DNA from: Candidatus Saccharimonadales bacterium
Lineage (GTDB): Bacteria > Patescibacteriota > Saccharimonadia > Saccharimonadales > JACDBH01
Length of the DNA stretch: 64,000 bases
NCBI GenBank assembly: GCA_041752595.1
Contig: JBGSWE010000007.1
Coordinates: 76,692 to 140,691, forward strand
Reading direction: 5' to 3'
Shown here: piece by piece, positions 308 through 40,360 of the stretch
Position numbering within the stretch: position 1 is the stretch's first letter
How the letters are laid out: each line of letters begins with the position of its first letter
Program-made: the position numbers and the translations under genes
The notes under the pieces: generated by a model
The model's database searches: none
What the model saw: the letters and a program-made list of their open reading frames with translations, nothing else
What the model was told of the DNA's origin: nothing

Positions 308-2167
308 TGCAGCGTCTTTGGGCATTTTAGAACCAGTCAAAATCGAAATTACTTCTTCTGCTTCTATTGTTTCTTTTTTTAGCAAAGCATCTTTGAGCTC
401 TTCGAGTTTGGTTAAGTTTGCTTTAATCACAATACGTGCCCTGTTAGCCGCTTCTGTAATTAGACTTTCAACTTCGTCATCAATAATCTTTGCTGTTTCA
501 TCAGAATAAACCTTGTCGTGCATCATACGATCCATCATCATACCTTCTTCAGTGTGAAATACTTGGTCGCGTAGTTTCTTGCCCATTCCTTGGTTTGTAA
601 TCATTTCTCTAGCTAGTTCTGCAGCTTTTTGTAAATCAGATCCCGCACCAGTAGTAACTCTATCAACCCCGTATTTTACTTCTTCAGCTATACGGCCACC
701 GAGCATTCTAGCAAGTACATCCTTGTATTCAATAATGCTGTGGTAGCTTTTGTCTTCTGGTGGAATAAACCAAGTTACACCGCCCGTACCGCCTCTTGGA
801 ATAATAGTAACCTTATGAACCATATCGCTATCTGGTAATACATGGCCGACAATTGCGTGGCCGGCTTCGTGATAGGCGGTTAGCTCTTTTTCTTTTTCTG
901 ACATAATTCTAGATTTTCGTTCAGGACCAATTGCTACTTTTTCGAATGCACTTGTCACGTCGTCTTGACTAATCTCTTTACGATTATTGCGTGCAGTTAG
1001 GATTGCTGCTTCGTTAGCTATGTTACCTAGGTCTGCTCCAGAACTTCCAGCAGATTTTGCTGCAAGCGAATCAAGATCAACACTTTTAGCTAGTGGTTTT
1101 TTGGCAAAATGAATTTTAAGAATTGCTGCGCGGTCTTTACGATCTGGCAAACCAATATTTACTCTTCTGTCAAAACGACCCGGACGGAGTAGTGCTGGAT
1201 CAAGCACATCAGCACGGTTAGTAGCAGCTAAGACAATAACATTGGCGCCTTGTTCAAAACCATCCATCTCAACCAAAATCTGGTTAAGAGTTTGTTCGCG
1301 CTCATCATGGCCTCCACCCATACCACTACCACGCTTGCGACCAACTGCATCAATTTCGTCAACAAATATAATACACGGGGCGTTCTTTTTGGCTTTTGCG
1401 AATAAATCACGAACCCTGGAGGCGCCAACACCAACAAACATCTCCACAAATTCAGAACCTGAAATACTAAAGAACGGGGTGTTAGCTTCGCCGGCAACAG
1501 CACGAGCTAACATAGTTTTACCAGTACCTGGAGGGCCCACTAGTAGTACACCCTTAGGAATTTTGGCACCGAGTTCTTCGAATTTTTTAGGAAATTTAAG
1601 AAACTCAACTACTTCGGCTAAATCTTGTTTGGCTTCTTCGGAACCAGCAATATCGCTAAACATAACTTTGTCTTTTTCGTTGCCATAAAGTTTTGCTTTG
1701 CTTTTACCAAAGCTCATAGCTTGGTTACCCTGCCCCTGGGCGCTCCTGAGCATAAAGAACAAAATGAAACCAATTAATATAACTGGTAGAAGCGATATAC
1801 CAAGCTGAGCCCAAATACCACCACCTTCAGATGGTTGCTCAAACTGTACGACAACCTTACTTGTATCTAGTCCGTCGTCAGCTAATGTTGCGTTGGGATC
1901 ACGCTGTGTTTTTAGAGTGGCATCATCTTTTTCGTTTTCAGTAATTTGTACATTAGATCCAGCAACCACCCATTTCTTGTGTTTGCCTTCATTTGCATCA
2001 GATATTGCTTGACTGTAAGGTATCTCGTCTAACTTACTTGGTTGGTTATAGGCCGCAAATATTACAGCCCCAATCAAGATTATCATTGCAACAAAGCCAA
2101 TATTCTTGAAGTTGTTACTTGGTTTCTTCCCCCCAGATTTTTTCGAACTAAACGGCTTTTTATCCAT
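299..2167 (-). CDS. ftsH: ATP-dependent zinc metalloprotease FtsH
   Basis: N-terminal TM segments; AAA+ Walker A GPPGTGKT; Zn-binding HEAGHA motif; 622 aa. Confidence 0.95.
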
Positions 2168-27981: not shown

Positions 27982-30089
27982 TAGTTGTTGTTTCGATCTG
28001 TGCCAAGACTATCGGCAACTGATATTATTTTACGCGCCTCACCACTGTCTGTATTAACAACATAATCAGCTGTTTCCTTGCTATCTTTGACTCTGAATAC
28101 AACTACGTTATCATCAAGCCAATATATTGGTGTTTTTAAACCAATAATATTTGCAAGTTCACGGTCTTTTCGTGCAACTTTATCGTATACAAGCAGTACA
28201 CCCTTGTCGTCTCTTTTATCTACCCATAGGCTGAAATTATTATTATAATTATCGTAATAAAATCTGTTTGTTTGAGAGCTTGGCTGCTGACTGGGTATCG
28301 CTTTACTGCCACCGTTTAACGAAAAACTATACCAGCTTGATCCAATATTAATGTCTACAGCCTCATACGATGTTCTTTGCAGCTGAAATGCCTCGTTGGG
28401 TTCAAGAATAGTTTGGCGATCTTCTGCTAGAACATTAACCGAATAAACTCCTGGTGAAGTATCTTGTATAAAAGCATTGGACGGAGCGTATATCACCCTA
28501 TCTCCGACTATTAAAATATCATTAAATGCATTTGCGCTGGCAAGTTGTTTTGTATCGGCTATATTCTGCGAATTAACGCTGACTATTCTATGCCGCTCTG
28601 GATCGGTACCGTCGACATCATTAGCAATCTTAACGTATATTAATCTTCCAGTTTTTGACCAACCAATTATATTTATTTTTTCTGACTGATCAACTTTAAT
28701 TAGACTACCGCTAGATGTGTCGACAATATATAGCGTACTTAGCAAATAACCACTTGGGCTTGTTGCTCTCTCCCTAGTTGATACCAGTGCGGCAGTAGAT
28801 GATTTTTGATTAGGAACATAGGCAATGTCATCACGCTCAAGTCCCGTACCTTGTACTATCTTTTGCTCGTTTTTGCCGTCAATATCAATTGAATAAACAT
28901 CGTATTTTCCTGAACGTTTTGATACAAACGAATGCTTACGAGCCGAAACCATCTCAACACTTTGTACTTCTTTATTTGCTACATTAACGGAAACTTTTTC
29001 ATCTCTATAATTTTCAGAACTAATTAATATTTCTACTTGAGCATCATCATTTAAGTTTGCTGTATCTAGAGTTATAATTAGTTTTCCGTCCTTATCTGAA
29101 ATTGCGTTACCGTCTCCGGACGATGCTTGAGCACCCTCGATTGGTTTACCGCTTAAAAAATCTTTAATTATAAACGTATATTGAGCTCCAATTGCTTTTA
29201 TAGGAAATTCTCCGATGGGGTTACTGCCCCAGCCAATAGTAATTGATTTTTCTACCGATGAAAAAGCTCGTTTTTCTATAATTAGTTTTGTATCTCCGAG
29301 CGGTAGGTCGGTGAGTCGTGCTATTCCTTCTGAATCTGTTTCTGCTACAGACGTGCCGGCGCTTACAGAAACGTTTTTTAGTGGCAATTGAGTTTCACTA
29401 TCGATAACCTTAAGTGACATGGTTGATCGCACGCCCGATGTGTTTAACAAATAATATCTAGTTTGTGGCGTAAATCCTATTCCTGCCGTAATAAGTAAAG
29501 TAAATACAAATAACCCCCACCTAAAACTAGAATGAGAAAATAATCTAGCAATAAATGATCTTTTCTTAGGTGATTTAGCTATTTCAGTTAACTCACGATC
29601 TTCGTCCTCTGCTTCTAGAACCAGGTCGGCTTCTTGGGCTACTATATCTTCTATTGCCTTAACAGTAACAGGATCGTCAGGTATTCCGTCTTCATTAATG
29701 CTTATGTTTTCAATTACTTCATCATTAGGTTCAACATCAACTATTACTTCTTCGGTTTCATCTACTTTAATGCTGCTAACTTCTTCTATTTCGGGCACCT
29801 CGTCAGACGCTTGATCTTTGACCTCTGTATCATCTAAATTTAATGGCTCTAACTCTGGTGCCGTTTCATTCGAACTATCTTTAATAACATCGATCTTTAT
29901 ACCTTCACTAAGCGACTCTAGTTCTCTGTTGGTGTCTTCTGTAGCTGTTTTTAGATCCCTAGTTTCAGAATCCTTAATAATTTTAATAGAGCTCTTGCCT
30001 GTAGGTAGAGCCGTATATAAATCAGCAAATTTACCAATTTTGGTATTTTTTGCTTTCTCTTTAGGAGGAATTTCAGGAGCGCTATCCAT
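27978..30089 (-). CDS. large surface/secreted protein with beta-propeller-like and carboxypeptidase-regulatory-like repeats
   Basis: Acidic N-terminus, single TM, TolB-like repeat signatures (YDVYSIDIDGKN). Confidence 0.5.
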   Translation of the reverse strand: MDSAPEIPPKEKAKNTKIGKFADLYTALPTGKSSIKIIKDSETRDLKTATEDTNRELESLSEGIKIDVIKDSSNETAPELEPLNLDDTEVKDQASDEVPEIEEVSSIKVDETEEVIVDVEPNDEVIENISINEDGIPDDPVTVKAIEDIVAQEADLVLEAEDEDRELTEIAKSPKKRSFIARLFSHSSFRWGLFVFTLLITAGIGFTPQTRYYLLNTSGVRSTMSLKVIDSETQLPLKNVSVSAGTSVAETDSEGIARLTDLPLGDTKLIIEKRAFSSVEKSITIGWGSNPIGEFPIKAIGAQYTFIIKDFLSGKPIEGAQASSGDGNAISDKDGKLIITLDTANLNDDAQVEILISSENYRDEKVSVNVANKEVQSVEMVSARKHSFVSKRSGKYDVYSIDIDGKNEQKIVQGTGLERDDIAYVPNQKSSTAALVSTRERATSPSGYLLSTLYIVDTSSGSLIKVDQSEKINIIGWSKTGRLIYVKIANDVDGTDPERHRIVSVNSQNIADTKQLASANAFNDILIVGDRVIYAPSNAFIQDTSPGVYSVNVLAEDRQTILEPNEAFQLQRTSYEAVDINIGSSWYSFSLNGGSKAIPSQQPSSQTNRFYYDNYNNNFSLWVDKRDDKGVLLVYDKVARKDRELANIIGLKTPIYWLDDNVVVFRVKDSKETADYVVNTDSGEARKIISVADSLGTDRNNNY

Positions 30090-35885: not shown

Positions 35886-37592
35886 ATGGATTCAATTTTT
35901 ATAGAACTTAGCGTAGTTATTGCTGTAGCTGTAAGCATGAGCCTCTTTATGCGCATTATTAGACAGCCGCTTATTATTGGACACATTCTAACGGGCCTTC
36001 TAGTTGGGCCTACTGTATTTAACCTTGTTAAATCGACAGAAACTATTGATGTATTCTCAGAGTTTGGTATTGCCTTGCTGTTATTTATCGTTGGACTTGG
36101 CCTGAATCCTCGAATTATAAAAGAAGTGGGTAAAGTTGCTGGTGCTATAGCATTTGTAAAAATAGCTGTAGTAACAAGCCTGGGCTTTTTAATTTGTAGT
36201 GCTTTAGGATTTGGTACAACCGAATCATTGCTTTTAGGTATAGGGCTTTCATTTAGTAGTACTATCATCATTCTTAAACTATTAGCTGACAAAAAAGAGC
36301 TTTCTAGGTTATACGGTAAAATTTCTATTGGTTTCTTACTCGTAGAAGATATTGTTGCAACTTTCTTGCTCGTCATTGTAGCTGCATACGCTTCAAGCGG
36401 CGGAATAAATCCTGGTGAGCTTGGGTTACTTGTTGCTAAGTTTGCCGGGCTGATTACTTTCTTAGTTCTTGTTCGAATTATATTCATAAACCATATGACC
36501 AACCTGATTGCAAAAAGTCAGGACTTTTTATTTCTTTTTGCAATTGGTTGGGCGCTAGGTATTGCTGCACTATTTCAGTACGTTGGATTTAGCCTAGAGA
36601 TTGGAGCACTTGTGGGGGGTGTTGTGTTAGCTAGCCTTCCTTATGCTCAGGAAATATCGTCACGCTTAAAGATACTAAGAGATTTCTTTATTGTCTTATT
36701 CTTTATAGGCCTTGGGTCTCACTTAAAGCTTGATAACATTACCAATGTACTACCCCAAGCAGTATTATTATCTATGTTAGTTCTTATAATAAATCCTCTT
36801 ATTGTTATGAGTGTTATGGGGCTCGGTGGTTATACCAAAAAGACAAGCTTTAAAACTGGCATGACCGGTTCACAGGTTTCTGAGTTCTCACTTATTTTGC
36901 TACTCTTAGCCGAAAAATCAGGTCTAATAGGAATACGTTCAGTATCGTTATTGACCATGGTGGCCTTAATAACAATTGCCGTTTCCACTTATATGATCCT
37001 TTACTCAGACAATTTATATAGTTTCTTTGAGCGTTACTTAAGATTTTTCGAACGTAAGAAGGTAAAGGAACACAAAGAAAAGCGCGAACATTACGAGTTA
37101 GTACTCATCGGCTACCACAAAGGCGGTCATGAATTCTTGAAAGTATTTAAGTCACTAAAAAAGAAATACATAATCGTAGATTATGATCCACAGGTTATTG
37201 ATGTTCTTGATAATCGTGGTGAGCCGTTCTTATATGGTGACGTTACAGATCTGGAACTGTTGGAGGAGCTTAACCTAAGCCATGCACACTTAATAGTTTC
37301 AACTATTACAGACTTGCCAACAAATTTACTGATTGCAAAATGGCTTGAAAAAAATAATCCACATGCTGTTTATATTGCAACCGCAGACGCAGCAGAAGAA
37401 GCTGCAGAGCTATACGAAGAAGGTGCGTCTTATGTTGTACTACCTCACTATATTGGCTCAGAAAAGATTAGCTCGTTTCTAAAGAAAAATGGTCTAAATA
37501 AAACAGAGTTCCGTCATTACCGCGAAAAACATTTAGCCTATTTACAGAGTCATCACGAACTTTTTGCAAGCGTATCTGGCAAAGATATATAA
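35886..37592 (+). CDS. CPA2 cation:proton antiporter with C-terminal TrkA-N (RCK) domain (Kef-type)
   Basis: About 12 TMs then Rossmann VLIGYHKGG. Confidence 0.8.
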   Translation: MDSIFIELSVVIAVAVSMSLFMRIIRQPLIIGHILTGLLVGPTVFNLVKSTETIDVFSEFGIALLLFIVGLGLNPRIIKEVGKVAGAIAFVKIAVVTSLGFLICSALGFGTTESLLLGIGLSFSSTIIILKLLADKKELSRLYGKISIGFLLVEDIVATFLLVIVAAYASSGGINPGELGLLVAKFAGLITFLVLVRIIFINHMTNLIAKSQDFLFLFAIGWALGIAALFQYVGFSLEIGALVGGVVLASLPYAQEISSRLKILRDFFIVLFFIGLGSHLKLDNITNVLPQAVLLSMLVLIINPLIVMSVMGLGGYTKKTSFKTGMTGSQVSEFSLILLLLAEKSGLIGIRSVSLLTMVALITIAVSTYMILYSDNLYSFFERYLRFFERKKVKEHKEKREHYELVLIGYHKGGHEFLKVFKSLKKKYIIVDYDPQVIDVLDNRGEPFLYGDVTDLELLEELNLSHAHLIVSTITDLPTNLLIAKWLEKNNPHAVYIATADAAEEAAELYEEGASYVVLPHYIGSEKISSFLKKNGLNKTEFRHYREKHLAYLQSHHELFASVSGKDI

Positions 37593-38212
37593 AGCCAGTG
37601 TTCGTTAATATACTGCCTTATACTCTCTAGAGATTCGGGAGCATTATGGCCTTTTTGTAAGGCATTCCTAATTGTTTGTGATGACGCGGCTGGCCTATTG
37701 GTTTCTATGGCAATTCCGTGAGGTTGAATTGTTGATAATATCTGTTTTGCTCGTTCAAGCTCGTGGCCAGACCTAACGCCAGTTATTAATCTAACTGTAG
37801 ATAACAAACGCTCACTATTTGGCCAATGCCCATCACGCAGACTCTCTAGAACGTCACTACCTAGCAACAAGTGTAGTTCGTCGTGCACAAACAAACGCTG
37901 AAGCTTAGGCAGGGTGCGTGCAATAGTAAACTGCTTATCGGATAGTTCTACTACTCTAAGTGATTGATGAGGGATTAATGCTAATTTCAGCATAGCTACT
38001 CGGTGTCCATAATGTGTTACACCGGTTTTATGATACGGCAAAACATCGGGTAAAAAATAGATAAAATCAAGCGACGCAGCCTTTGCAGCAGCTAGCGCAA
38101 ACCCAATATGGCCCTTATGAACAGGATCAAAGGTACCAGAATAAATACCAATTTTCCTGGGTTTTTGTCCCACTAACTGGTTAAGGCCTTTGCTTTTTAT
38201 GATTTTAGTCAT
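37553..38212 (-). CDS. nadD: nicotinate-nucleotide adenylyltransferase
   Basis: GIYSGTFDPVHKGHI nucleotidyltransferase (H/T)xGH motif. Confidence 0.85.
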   Translation of the reverse strand: MTKIIKSKGLNQLVGQKPRKIGIYSGTFDPVHKGHIGFALAAAKAASLDFIYFLPDVLPYHKTGVTHYGHRVAMLKLALIPHQSLRVVELSDKQFTIARTLPKLQRLFVHDELHLLLGSDVLESLRDGHWPNSERLLSTVRLITGVRSGHELERAKQILSTIQPHGIAIETNRPAASSQTIRNALQKGHNAPESLESIRQYINEHWLYISLPDTLAKSS

Positions 38213-38221
38213 TAACCTATT

Positions 38222-38425
38222 CTACCTCGAAACTGTTACATCACAAGAAGGACAAGTAATTGTTGTTGGTGTAAGTACAGCGTCAACCAACTTTTTACAA
38301 AAAGGACATGTCACACAAGGCATCAAATTTGGGTTAGTATTACTAATTCGATCGTGGTCAATTTCGCAAAGTCCGTCGCAGTTTGCGGCTTGATGTTCGT
38401 ATAGTTCAGGGGTTAGTTTAGTCAT
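38222..38425 (-). CDS. small zinc-ribbon protein (67 aa)
   Basis: Four CxxC-type pairs (CDGLC, CVTCPFC, CPSC); start at internal Met just after upstream stop. Confidence 0.5.
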   Translation of the reverse strand: MTKLTPELYEHQAANCDGLCEIDHDRISNTNPNLMPCVTCPFCKKLVDAVLTPTTITCPSCDVTVSR

Positions 38426-39653
38426 TGGCTTGCCTTTTAATTTTTGTCTCTTTTTTATTACTAAATACCACAGTGATGCTTTCTTTCTGTATTTTACTAA
38501 CGCCCCTATAAAGTTTTGCAGGGTCTCTACCTTTATCAAACCAATTTTGGCAATTGCGACAAACACTACACTGAGCCACCTTTGTCTTTCCGGGTCGAGT
38601 TGGGCAATTATCAACACGGCAAATGCCTTCTTTCCAGATTAACTTATCTTTGCCGTCTCCAGATTTGTCCGCTTGGTTGCCATAACCTAAATCACTCATC
38701 TGAGATTCGGCGCCAACACTAAACTGATCGCCCACACTTTTGCCGCAACCACTAAACACTTCACCTCTCGCCTGTGCAAAGTTTCCTGCTCGATACATTT
38801 CATCAATAGCCATAGAATATGCCACCAATCCAGCATCAACTTTCTCAATTCTGGCTTCTACTTTGCCCACATAACGATCTTTCATTGCTGCTGCTAATGC
38901 GTAATCACGAAAACCGCCTGTAAATCCTGTAGTGGTTGCGAAATATGCAGATAATAAATCTTTTTGGTTACAAACAAATTCATAAGTATCATTTGTGTTC
39001 TCGTTTAATCTACCGGCATACCATTCACCGCTAAATTGAGCCTTCATGGAACGATCGTAAACATACCTTAACTGACTAATCATAAATTCCTTAGACATAT
39101 CATCTAATTCTACAAACTTACGTTGTCCTAACAGTTCGCCAGGTGCGACAGGTTCACCCAGATATTCGTACATCGCCTCAAGTGCGCGGCGGTTGCTGCC
39201 ATCTAGCGATTGGCTATACATTTTGAGCTTGCCACTTTCAGTCTTAGAAATAACTCGTAGCATTGTTTGTTTACGACTTACATTGTATCCACCCACGTCT
39301 TCTGTAGCATTCATAAGTTCTGGCGGAAAATCAGATACAACTACCATAGTGTTTGGTTTGTCTCCGGTCATCATTGCCAGCATATCTAAATACTCTTGTT
39401 TTTCTAGCTTTCGACGGCGCAACTCATAACTAGGCAGATCCTTTGCTTGTTCAATTGAATCATCAAATATCTTGCCCATAGCACTACCATCAGAGGCATA
39501 TAATTCACCTTCATGATACGTATATTCGAACGGCGTTCGCATGCTACCTGGCATGACCTCAGCTAGCCAGGTAACAGTATCGTAATATCGGCGTGTTTCG
39601 TGATCATAGCTTTTATTTTCAATATTTTGTTGTTCGACTAAATAATTCATCAA
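38418..39653 (-). CDS. hypothetical protein (411 aa) with C-terminal Cys cluster
   Basis: Long ORF, C-terminal CRVDNC...CSVCRNC; no family recognised. Confidence 0.6.
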   Translation of the reverse strand: MMNYLVEQQNIENKSYDHETRRYYDTVTWLAEVMPGSMRTPFEYTYHEGELYASDGSAMGKIFDDSIEQAKDLPSYELRRRKLEKQEYLDMLAMMTGDKPNTMVVVSDFPPELMNATEDVGGYNVSRKQTMLRVISKTESGKLKMYSQSLDGSNRRALEAMYEYLGEPVAPGELLGQRKFVELDDMSKEFMISQLRYVYDRSMKAQFSGEWYAGRLNENTNDTYEFVCNQKDLLSAYFATTTGFTGGFRDYALAAAMKDRYVGKVEARIEKVDAGLVAYSMAIDEMYRAGNFAQARGEVFSGCGKSVGDQFSVGAESQMSDLGYGNQADKSGDGKDKLIWKEGICRVDNCPTRPGKTKVAQCSVCRNCQNWFDKGRDPAKLYRGVSKIQKESITVVFSNKKETKIKRQAND

Positions 39654-39800
39654 AAAACCCTTGCTACGCGAGCAAGGGTTAATCTATACCAACCTTACGA
39701 GTCGTCAGTATATTATGCTCCTGCTCGGGAGACTTTATTGCTAGATCGGACTTTAACCGTTGCGGCACAGCGAGGGAATTTCACCCTACTTCCAGCGTTT
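39654..39800 (-). promoter_or_regulatory. structured 5' leader ending in terminator/RBS-sequestering hairpin (candidate riboswitch or attenuator)
   Basis: Minus-strand RNA ...cccuugcucgcguagcaaggguuuuuugAUG: stem includes the only purine-rich RBS-like element; about 120 nt of upstream leader with further pairing potential. Confidence 0.35.
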
Positions 39801-39937
39801 TTGTAATTTGTATAAGGAACTTATAATACAGTGTAACCCAATTAGACTACGCTAGATATAGTATTTTTTGCTTCATTTATACCACTAAAAACTTAGTAAT
39901 CTAGGTCTGAATAAGATAGAACTTAGTTTAAAATATA

Positions 39938-39966
39938 TTGACATAATAGCAATAATATGCTAATAT
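39938..39966 (+). promoter_or_regulatory. sigma70-like promoter (TTGACA-17-TAATAT) for small-ORF cassette
   Basis: Perfect -35, 17-nt spacer, near-consensus -10. Confidence 0.5.
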
Positions 39967-40059
39967 GTGTACTGTGACATGGTATATCTATGGCACGTTA
40001 TTTAAAAAGCTTTCTTTCACTATCTTCTTTCGGATATTTTAGTGTTTACCTTATTAGTT

Positions 40060-40111
40060 AGTGGTTGGAAATAAGCTCGTTTATATATAAGCTGGTTTAT
40101 TCCCAACCACC
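40060..40111 (+). promoter_or_regulatory. long inverted repeat in leader of 40127 ORF
   Basis: gtggttggaa ... ttcccaaccac arms enclosing aagctcg/aagctgg repeats, immediately before RBS aaggaaacc. Confidence 0.35.
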
Positions 40112-40126
40112 AACAAGGAAACCATC

Positions 40127-40360
40127 ATGTCCGACAATCTAGCTGAAGACTTTCAAGATAGGCCTCGGCCAATCTGGATGGAATACCTAGACGAAGCACC
40201 TCGTGTTACGACTACTTCGGATTCAGACATCACAGAATTGGACAGATTTCGCATCGATCGAGAGATTGAAATTGAAGCGTGCTACAGCCTCCTGTGCAAG
40301 TTTCCGTTCTGTTATGAGCTACGTACGGAGTGCACCAAGCATTTCGTTAAGAAATCTTGA
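40127..40360 (+). CDS. small Cys-containing protein (77 aa), unknown function
   Basis: RBS acaaggaaacc-N3-ATG; C-terminal CX4CX4CX6C. Confidence 0.45.
   Translation: MSDNLAEDFQDRPRPIWMEYLDEAPRVTTTSDSDITELDRFRIDREIEIEACYSLLCKFPFCYELRTECTKHFVKKS

Follow-up and report, generated by a model that had tools for sequence, protein, structure and literature searches.

The leader on the minus strand upstream of a gene for a 410-aa protein is very probably a cobalamin (B12) riboswitch of the short AdoCbl-II, or 'AdoCbl-variant', type, acting as an OFF switch on an operon that encodes the 410-aa protein, a 67-aa protein and a NadD-like protein. The window, the whole 64-kb stretch of DNA that was analysed, contains a single copy of the element. 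Judged by its sequence and predicted fold, the RNA is an ordinary member of the known cobalamin riboswitch family. It departs from that family in having no P1, in the reuse of P13 as a predicted antiterminator and in being tied to one protein family, since the riboswitch preceded the 410-aa family in every Saccharibacteria locus examined that had upstream sequence. A literature search found no paper on a native cobalamin riboswitch in Saccharibacteria or Patescibacteria, and searches for work on Saccharibacteria and B12, riboswitches or RNR turned up nothing relevant.

The aptamer and its conservation

A search of the whole window with Rfam at the gathering threshold gave three tRNAs and a single further match, RF01689 AdoCbl-II (cobalamin clan CL00101), at 39734-39810 on the minus strand. 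With 42.5 bits (E = 8e-7 for the whole window), it lies 6 bits above the gathering score of 36.5, while a purpose-built covariance model, designated R1, scored 98 bits over 39716-39809. The earlier note on this DNA had proposed a riboswitch leader with a terminator-like, SD-sequestering platform directly before a start codon, and the RF01689 match and the hairpin described below bear this out. It had not matched the leader to a known class by eye, but the Rfam scan that it recommended put the cobalamin clan above the gathering score, both here and in orthologous leaders. Its extent of 39654-39800 did cover leader sequence, but the element runs on to about 39810, the end of the Rfam match. At a relaxed threshold (E<=10, 39500-40200) no NAD-I/II riboswitch and no T-box were detected. 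Other RNA families were ruled out for the leader, as only spurious matches far below threshold were obtained (miRNA; L10 leader, 15.7 bits vs 44; FMN, 14.6 bits vs 66.2). The T-box or attenuator alternative raised in the note likewise fell with this search, which returned no T-box and no leader family above such spurious scores.

The four-way-junction core, delineated by covariation, occupies 39740-39796 on the minus strand. It consists of a closing stem, GCUGG/CUAGC (39796-39792 with 39744-39740), P4, GUAGGG-UGAAAUU-CCCUC (39789-39772), P5/L5, UG-UGCCG-CA (39769-39761), and P6, CGG-UUAAAGU-CCG (39759-39747), which bears the B12-box-like AAGUCCGAUCUAGC, all of them likewise defined by covariation. 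The complementary segments noticed upstream of the terminal hairpin in the earlier note do exist, though some had been paired wrongly; gggugaaauuccc forms the P4 T-loop hairpin and aagucucccgagcagg includes the P13 hairpin, while 'ccgcaacgg' is not a hairpin and covers L5, the 3' side of P5 and the 5' side of P6. The outermost helix of the aptamer was the closing stem of 4-5 bp. No support was obtained for the outer P1 helix that the Rfam model includes, with three of its six pairs non-canonical in cmscan and, in 39 leaders, a duplex energy between the 5' flank and the linker that was no better than that of shuffles. A P1-like pairing of the conserved upstream block (ACUAYAU) with the linker (AAAGU) was rejected because the linker varies (AGU, AGC, AUC, GAC) and the block is invariant.

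The 3' side of the aptamer is joined by the 8-nt J1/13 linker, AAUAAAGU (39732-39739, minus strand), to the P13 regulatory hairpin, CUCC-CGAGCA-GGAG (39718-39731, minus strand), in which all four stem pairs covary. The linker was 6-13 nt long (median 9) in 38 of 39 leaders and 17 nt in the remaining one. In env8, J1/13 is 7 nt and regulation is lost at 0-4 nt (Polaski et al. 2016, PMC5028336). The regulatory unit of the class is the P13 stem-loop on a short J1/13 tether, and its loop kisses L5, forming a helix that always has an unpaired nucleotide (Polaski et al., PMC5028336). In the window, L13 (39727-39722), CG(A)GCA, could form 5 bp with L5 (39767-39763), UGCCG, leaving one A bulged. Both loops were invariant and showed no covariation, and we infer the L5-L13 kissing loop from their complementarity. 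The loop of the terminator was also considered as the partner of L5; it was rejected in favour of L13, as the terminator loops are variable and have no consistent complementarity.

The orthologue sample comprised 49 species-representative loci, all from Saccharibacteria MAGs, 47 of which were scanned with Rfam. A cobalamin-clan aptamer reached the Rfam gathering score in 25 of the 47, on the strand of the gene and 60-250 nt upstream; the RF01689 scores were 36.7-57.2 bits and the RF00174 scores 33.5-41.9 bits. Model R1, built from 16 minimal leaders (alignment A3), detected the element in each of the 52 sources for which upstream sequence was available, without exception directly before the gene and on its strand, which is the conservation ahead of orthologous genes that the earlier note had expected of a functional leader. 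The two loci missed by R1 (L045, L047) are cut off by the contig start. The most distant detectable members of the protein family (L055-L058) have the riboswitch too.

In the MAFFT alignment A3, 95.7% of the cells were paired and 11 of the 19 pairs had changed on both sides. When 53 distinct sequences were aligned to the model, a fit that biases the alignment towards structure, 94.5% were paired and double changes were found in 14 of 19 pairs, including all four pairs of P13. None of 500 shuffles matched the covariation score, and controls with slid partners were 25-53% paired, the values for alignment A3 being 27-52%. Covariation in homologous leaders, the second check advised in the note, was strong (about 95% paired). 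The predicted aptamer fold, that is, the closing stem, P4, P5 and P6, is conserved and covaries across the family together with the P13 hairpin.

The same orthologous leader exists in a minimal form, which scores as RF01689, and with large insertions in P6 (L009, L012, L015, L019, L026, L042) or P4 (L011, L032, L038, L048), some of which score as RF00174. The feature that divides RF01689 from RF00174 must thus have arisen or disappeared several times within the leader of a single gene. The ligand selectivity of the orthologous riboswitches might differ between species.

AdoCbl-II/AdoCbl-variant RNAs are represented in PMC5028336 by env8HyCbl (Johnson et al. 2012, as cited there). The window leader shares with RF01689 a short aptamer that lacks the peripheral extension of P6. 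Further shared elements are the P4 T-loop GUGAAAUUC, P5/L5, P6 with the B12-box-like AAGUCCGA, a J1/13 of about 7-9 nt, the P13 stem-loop and an L13 complementary to L5 with an unpaired purine. Unlike RF01689/env8, the window leader has no outer P1 and its functional SD is not in P13, where L13 and the 3' arm instead constitute a predicted antiterminator or anti-sequestor; a second, look-alike hairpin carries the SD and the U-tract. Moreover, the host belongs to the Saccharibacteria rather than to marine bacteria and the gene downstream is uncharacterised. The classical cobalamin riboswitch, RF00174, exemplified by the E. coli btuB and Thermoanaerobacter AdoCbl riboswitches, is of the same clan and has the same junction core, and some of the orthologous leaders with P6 or P4 insertions score as RF00174 and not as RF01689. 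The window copy differs from it in lacking the P6 extension and the long P1/P2 region.

The expression platform

The 3' end of the minus-strand leader reads ...AACCCUUGCU-CGCGU-AGCAAGGGUU-UUUUG-AUG. The terminator/SD-sequestor hairpin, AACCCUUGCU-CGCGU-AGCAAGGGUU (39656-39680), was identified by folding energy and by a terminator scan. The perfect 8-bp GC-rich stem described in the earlier note, CCCUUGCU/AGCAAGGG, proved exact and is the core of a stem that reaches 10 bp (39680-39671 with 39665-39656). The note was also correct in locating the only SD-like element of the leader in the 3' arm of this hairpin, ahead of a U-run and the AUG; the element is AAGGG (39662-39658), 7 nt from the ATG at 39650. 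The hairpin is followed by a U6 tract (39652-39657, minus strand), a terminator-like tail that doubles as the spacer between the SD and the start codon, and the single G between this tract and the ATG is the only nucleotide that separates them. The open reading frame list opens the 410-aa gene at an in-frame TTG (39653), but the ATG at 39650 is favoured as the start because of the N-termini of homologues and the SD spacing.

The terminal hairpin has a folding energy of -15.1 kcal/mol compared with -7.1 +/- 2.5 kcal/mol for dinucleotide shuffles (z = -3.2), 2 of 200 shuffles being equally good. The terminator scan called it independently and, as far as sequence can tell, it has the makings of an intrinsic terminator, with a 10-bp stem, 5 GC pairs, a 5-nt loop and the U6 tract. 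The comparison with shuffled controls suggested in the note thus favoured the terminal hairpin but not the 186-nt leader as a whole, which did not fold significantly better than shuffles (z = -1.23), and the evidence of function therefore rests on homology and covariation. No co-directional gene ends upstream of the leader; the neighbouring open reading frame at 40127 diverges on the plus strand.

In the orthologous leaders, a hairpin of -10 kcal/mol or lower touched the start codon in 36 of 44, and an SD-like motif was present in the hairpin 3' arm in 36 of 44. A U-run of at least four was found in 29 of the 44, compared with 3 of 14 other genes in the window, and the U fraction of the SD-to-start spacer was 0.60 in the orthologous leaders versus 0.46 in the other window genes. 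Predicted SD sequestration is the common denominator of these leaders. The terminator feature is found in about two-thirds of them, the window's included, and the predicted termination is hence not universal.

A candidate antiterminator is provided by strand B, CGAGCAGG (39720-39727, minus strand), which comprises L13 and the 3' arm of P13 and is complementary to strand C, CUUGCUCG (39676-39669, minus strand), the 5' arm of the terminal hairpin. The free energy of the B:C duplex in the window was -13.2 kcal/mol, and the mean over 44 leaders was -12.6 kcal/mol, compared with -7.3 +/- 0.35 kcal/mol when B was shuffled. None of 500 cross-species permutations reached the observed value. Compensated changes were seen in L031, where CUAGCA occurs with UGCUAG, and in L027 and L049, where GAGCUAG occurs with CUAGCUC; comparison across species shows that B and C are complementary and covary. 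When the platform was cut before the 3' arm of the terminator, as in a nascent transcript, the minimum free energy (MFE) structure contained B:C in 40 of 40 leaders. In the full platform, the MFE structure contained the terminator/sequestor pairing C:D in 29 of 40 leaders and retained the antiterminator in the other 11. For the window, the corresponding energies were -19.7 kcal/mol with B:C and -27.0 kcal/mol with P13, spacer hairpin 2 and the terminator.

Spacer hairpin 2, UAUACUGAC-GACUCGUAAG-GUUGGUAUA (39685-39712, minus strand), appeared in the MFE folds. Among close relatives (L002-L011) its loop, ACUCGUAAG, was conserved and its stems differed and covaried, and the hairpin was missing in distant relatives. 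The CUCG of this hairpin is complementary to the CGAG of L13. It is conceivable that spacer hairpin 2 makes a second loop-loop contact or serves as a decoy.

These elements predict a B12-dependent OFF switch on both transcription and translation. In the absence of B12, P13 would not be held in place and strand B would capture strand C as it emerges during transcription, blocking the terminal hairpin; the resulting read-through and free SD would be the ON state. When B12 occupies the four-way junction, the L5-L13 kissing loop would lock P13 so that strand B is withheld. Strand C would then pair with D, transcription would terminate at the U-tract and the SD would be buried in any full-length transcript, giving the OFF state. 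Several observations count against a B12 OFF switch, 1) P1 is absent, 2) 11 of 40 MFE structures keep the antiterminator, 3) about one-third of the leaders have no U-run, 4) the Rfam margin is only 6 bits, 5) the z-score of the leader is -1.23, 6) the kissing loop is without covariation and 7) the controlled genes are not among the known B12 genes.

Alternatively, a cobalamin riboswitch could act purely on translation, the hairpin hiding the SD and the U-run being merely an A/U-rich spacer. This is unlikely, although it deserves more weight than any other alternative. In its favour, 15 of the 44 orthologous leaders have the hairpin and the SD yet no U-run of four or more, SD sequestration is common to the leaders, the SD-to-start spacers of this genome are already 46% U, and the classical relatives such as env8 act on translation (PMC5028336). 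However, the window hairpin, with 10 bp and -15 kcal/mol followed by six U residues, passes the terminator scan, and U-runs of at least four are found in 29 of 44 leaders versus 3 of 14 control genes. Moreover, the antiterminator forms first on the nascent chain in 40 of 40 leaders, a hallmark of transcriptional control, although the same pairing could also serve as an anti-sequestor. Terminator/antiterminator platforms similar to that of the window are common among Firmicutes cobalamin riboswitches. Dual terminator/SD-sequestor platforms have the same arrangement of an SD in the 3' arm, a U-tract as spacer and an immediate start codon. The mechanism is thus not new when set beside such dual-acting platforms, but the arrangement in the window is very compact and is conserved across the phylum.

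The controlled genes and the ligand

The operon outlined in the earlier note, an unknown protein, a Zn-ribbon protein and a NadD-like protein, was upheld by the gene spacing, with an overlap of 8 nt and a gap of 9 nt, and by a terminator scan that found no minus-strand terminator between the three genes. Gene 1 (38418-39650, minus strand) encodes the 410-aa protein. Its N-terminal alpha/beta domain is conserved, and it also carries an FSGCG motif, with a zinc-ribbon at the C terminus. The protein belongs to no family in Pfam, NCBIfam, PHROG or PADLOC and has no PDB match, and its AF2 model (pLDDT 84) gave no fold match. It has at least 461 homologues, every one of them unnamed or 'hypothetical', and the few with a taxon name are from Saccharibacteria/Saccharimonadales; the family forms at least 428 clusters at 50% identity.

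Gene 2 (38222-38425, minus strand) encodes a 67-aa Cys-rich zinc-ribbon protein and overlaps gene 1 by 8 nt, including the stop codon of gene 1. It directly follows gene 1 in 10 close relatives (L002-L006, L009-L012, L015) with 54-79% identity and, because of this conservation, is by sequence a real small gene restricted to that subclade. Gene 3 (37553-38212, minus strand) starts 9 nt after gene 2 and encodes a nucleotidyltransferase of 219 aa. Its match to PF01467 (1.4e-15) places it in the superfamily. Its score with TIGR00482, 102.3 bits, is under the equivalog cutoff of 112.45 and it is therefore named only NadD-like; a role as nicotinate-nucleotide adenylyltransferase is plausible, not secure. 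Gene 3 was downstream on the same strand in 35 of 44 loci, and some loci without it still have the riboswitch. B12 probably also affects the expression of the NadD-like gene in this genome.

A metagenome scan for the L5...P13 pattern, which lends independent support to the P13 architecture, returned 80 loci, 55 of which are true cobalamin riboswitches. In many of these the GGAG 3' arm of an identical P13 hairpin is the SD, as is classical for P13, and the start codon follows 5-8 nt on. The same riboswitch subtype elsewhere precedes genes for PduO adenosyltransferase, DUF6580/ECF-S-like, TonB-receptor-like and small exported proteins, and the sister riboswitches with the same L5/P13 control the PduO adenosyltransferase and a DUF6580 protein. 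One metagenomic locus (L061) has two cobalamin riboswitches (267-365 and 1468-1559, plus strand) within 1.2 kb, the first before a DUF6580/ECF-S-like membrane protein.

Several Pfam-less proteins encoded behind cobalamin riboswitches share a C-terminal module in which a helix and a Gly/Cys motif (SGCG, GGCG, GCPGG) are joined by a linker to a zinc-ribbon. The set with this Cys/ribbon module comprises L069, L136, L124, L103, L125, L118, L102 and L063, together with the ribbon-bearing L071, L110 and L059. In the latter three the ribbon is nearly identical to that of the window protein (WKKGxCRVxxCPTRPGxTEVGPCSVCxxCQ) and the N-terminal domain is different. The ribbon of the L110 type was aligned with the window protein by hhalign with a probability of 94%, and when the 410-aa family was compared in this way with the other riboswitch-controlled Cys/ribbon proteins, only the ribbon was clearly common to them.

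The 410-aa family may be a new cobalamin-related family of Saccharibacteria/CPR, a tentative reading in which our confidence falls a little short of even. Its members would be either a B12-independent substitute for a B12-dependent enzyme or a cytoplasmic enzyme of corrinoid processing or trafficking that uses the conserved Cys and the zinc-ribbon, and B12 would also gate the NadD-like protein and NAD synthesis. If this is true, the occurrence of the Cys/zinc-ribbon module behind B12 riboswitches in proteins with other N-terminal domains would mark a wider, undescribed B12-linked module, and this recurrence is the most interesting loose end. The riboswitch is a signpost and the protein family is the lead worth following. 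Linkage to a riboswitch is a strong and cheap clue to function, and expression of the 410-aa protein is predicted to be responsive to B12. Ultrasmall and dependent on hosts, the Saccharibacteria have many genes whose function is unknown, and the leader offers a testable entry into the vitamin dependence of their life as epibionts. Native leaders that respond to a ligand could also become genetic tools in Patescibacteria, for which the need for such tools has been stated (PMC11665869).

A cobalamin-type fold could instead serve epibionts that do not produce B12 as a sensor of host proximity or environment, the controlled protein being unrelated to corrinoids. Consistent with this, none of the controlled proteins resembles the product of a B12 gene, no B12-dependent enzyme was present among the ten largest open reading frames of the 64-kb window, and Saccharibacteria depend on a host (PMC11665869). 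We consider it improbable, as the same subtype of riboswitch governs classical B12 genes elsewhere and the absence of B12 enzymes was judged on 64 kb of the genome only. The ligand suggested in the earlier note, an NAD-pathway metabolite (NAD+, NMN or nicotinamide), has the downstream NadD-like gene and nothing else to recommend it. It is most improbable, given that NAD-I/II, T-box and other riboswitch or attenuator families gave no match even at E<=10 in 39500-40200, that the sequence and the covarying structure belong to the cobalamin clan, and that family members without a downstream NadD-like gene retain the riboswitch. Equally implausible is the idea that the cobalamin-like sequence arose by chance or has decayed and regulates nothing, the hairpin being ordinary or the terminator of another transcript; the modest Rfam margin (6 bits), the missing P1 and the non-significant folding z-score of the leader would fit it, but all 52 sources had the element, every helix showed compensatory changes, P13 and the platform covary, and the upstream neighbour (40127) is divergent, on the plus strand.

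Promoter region and flanking sequence

Upstream of the aptamer is a conserved block, CAAAAAAUACUAUAUCUAGCGU (39849-39870, minus strand), a putative promoter or operator specific to gene 1. An exact regular-expression match to the block was found in 21 of 47 orthologous leaders, and the block was also visible in the MAFFT alignment. This 22-nt sequence, CAAAAAATACTATATCTAGCGT, was conserved across leaders whose proteins share only about 45% identity and did not recur as a motif in the window. A -10-like box, TACACT (39830-39835, minus strand; consensus TAnACT, often preceded by TGn in orthologues), lies about 15 nt downstream of the block at a conserved position. A scan for the sigma-70 consensus did not call this box. 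The promoter is likely to be within 39830-39870, with transcription presumably starting a few nucleotides downstream of the -10-like box, near 39823, and the 22-nt block could be an operator of this gene alone or a promoter element of an unusual kind. The block was also considered as a genome-wide promoter motif, and a scan of the window allowing two mismatches gave 14 matches where 7 were expected; this reading was rejected because the full block with a TAnACT box occurs only at the 39849-39870 site.

Within a 703-aa open reading frame, at 28700-28735 on the minus strand, ATCTAGCGGTAGTCTAATT is almost a copy of ATCTAGCG-TAGTCTAATT from the promoter region of the riboswitch (39841-39858), probably by chance. 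A long near-perfect hairpin, UUAGUGGUUGGAAAUAAGCUCGUUUAUAUAUAAGCUGGUUUAUUCCCAACCACCAA, on the plus strand at 40046-40123 ends at the RBS of the divergent 77-aa open reading frame (40127-40360). This open reading frame belongs to no family, and the hairpin before it was the source of the spurious Rfam miRNA matches.
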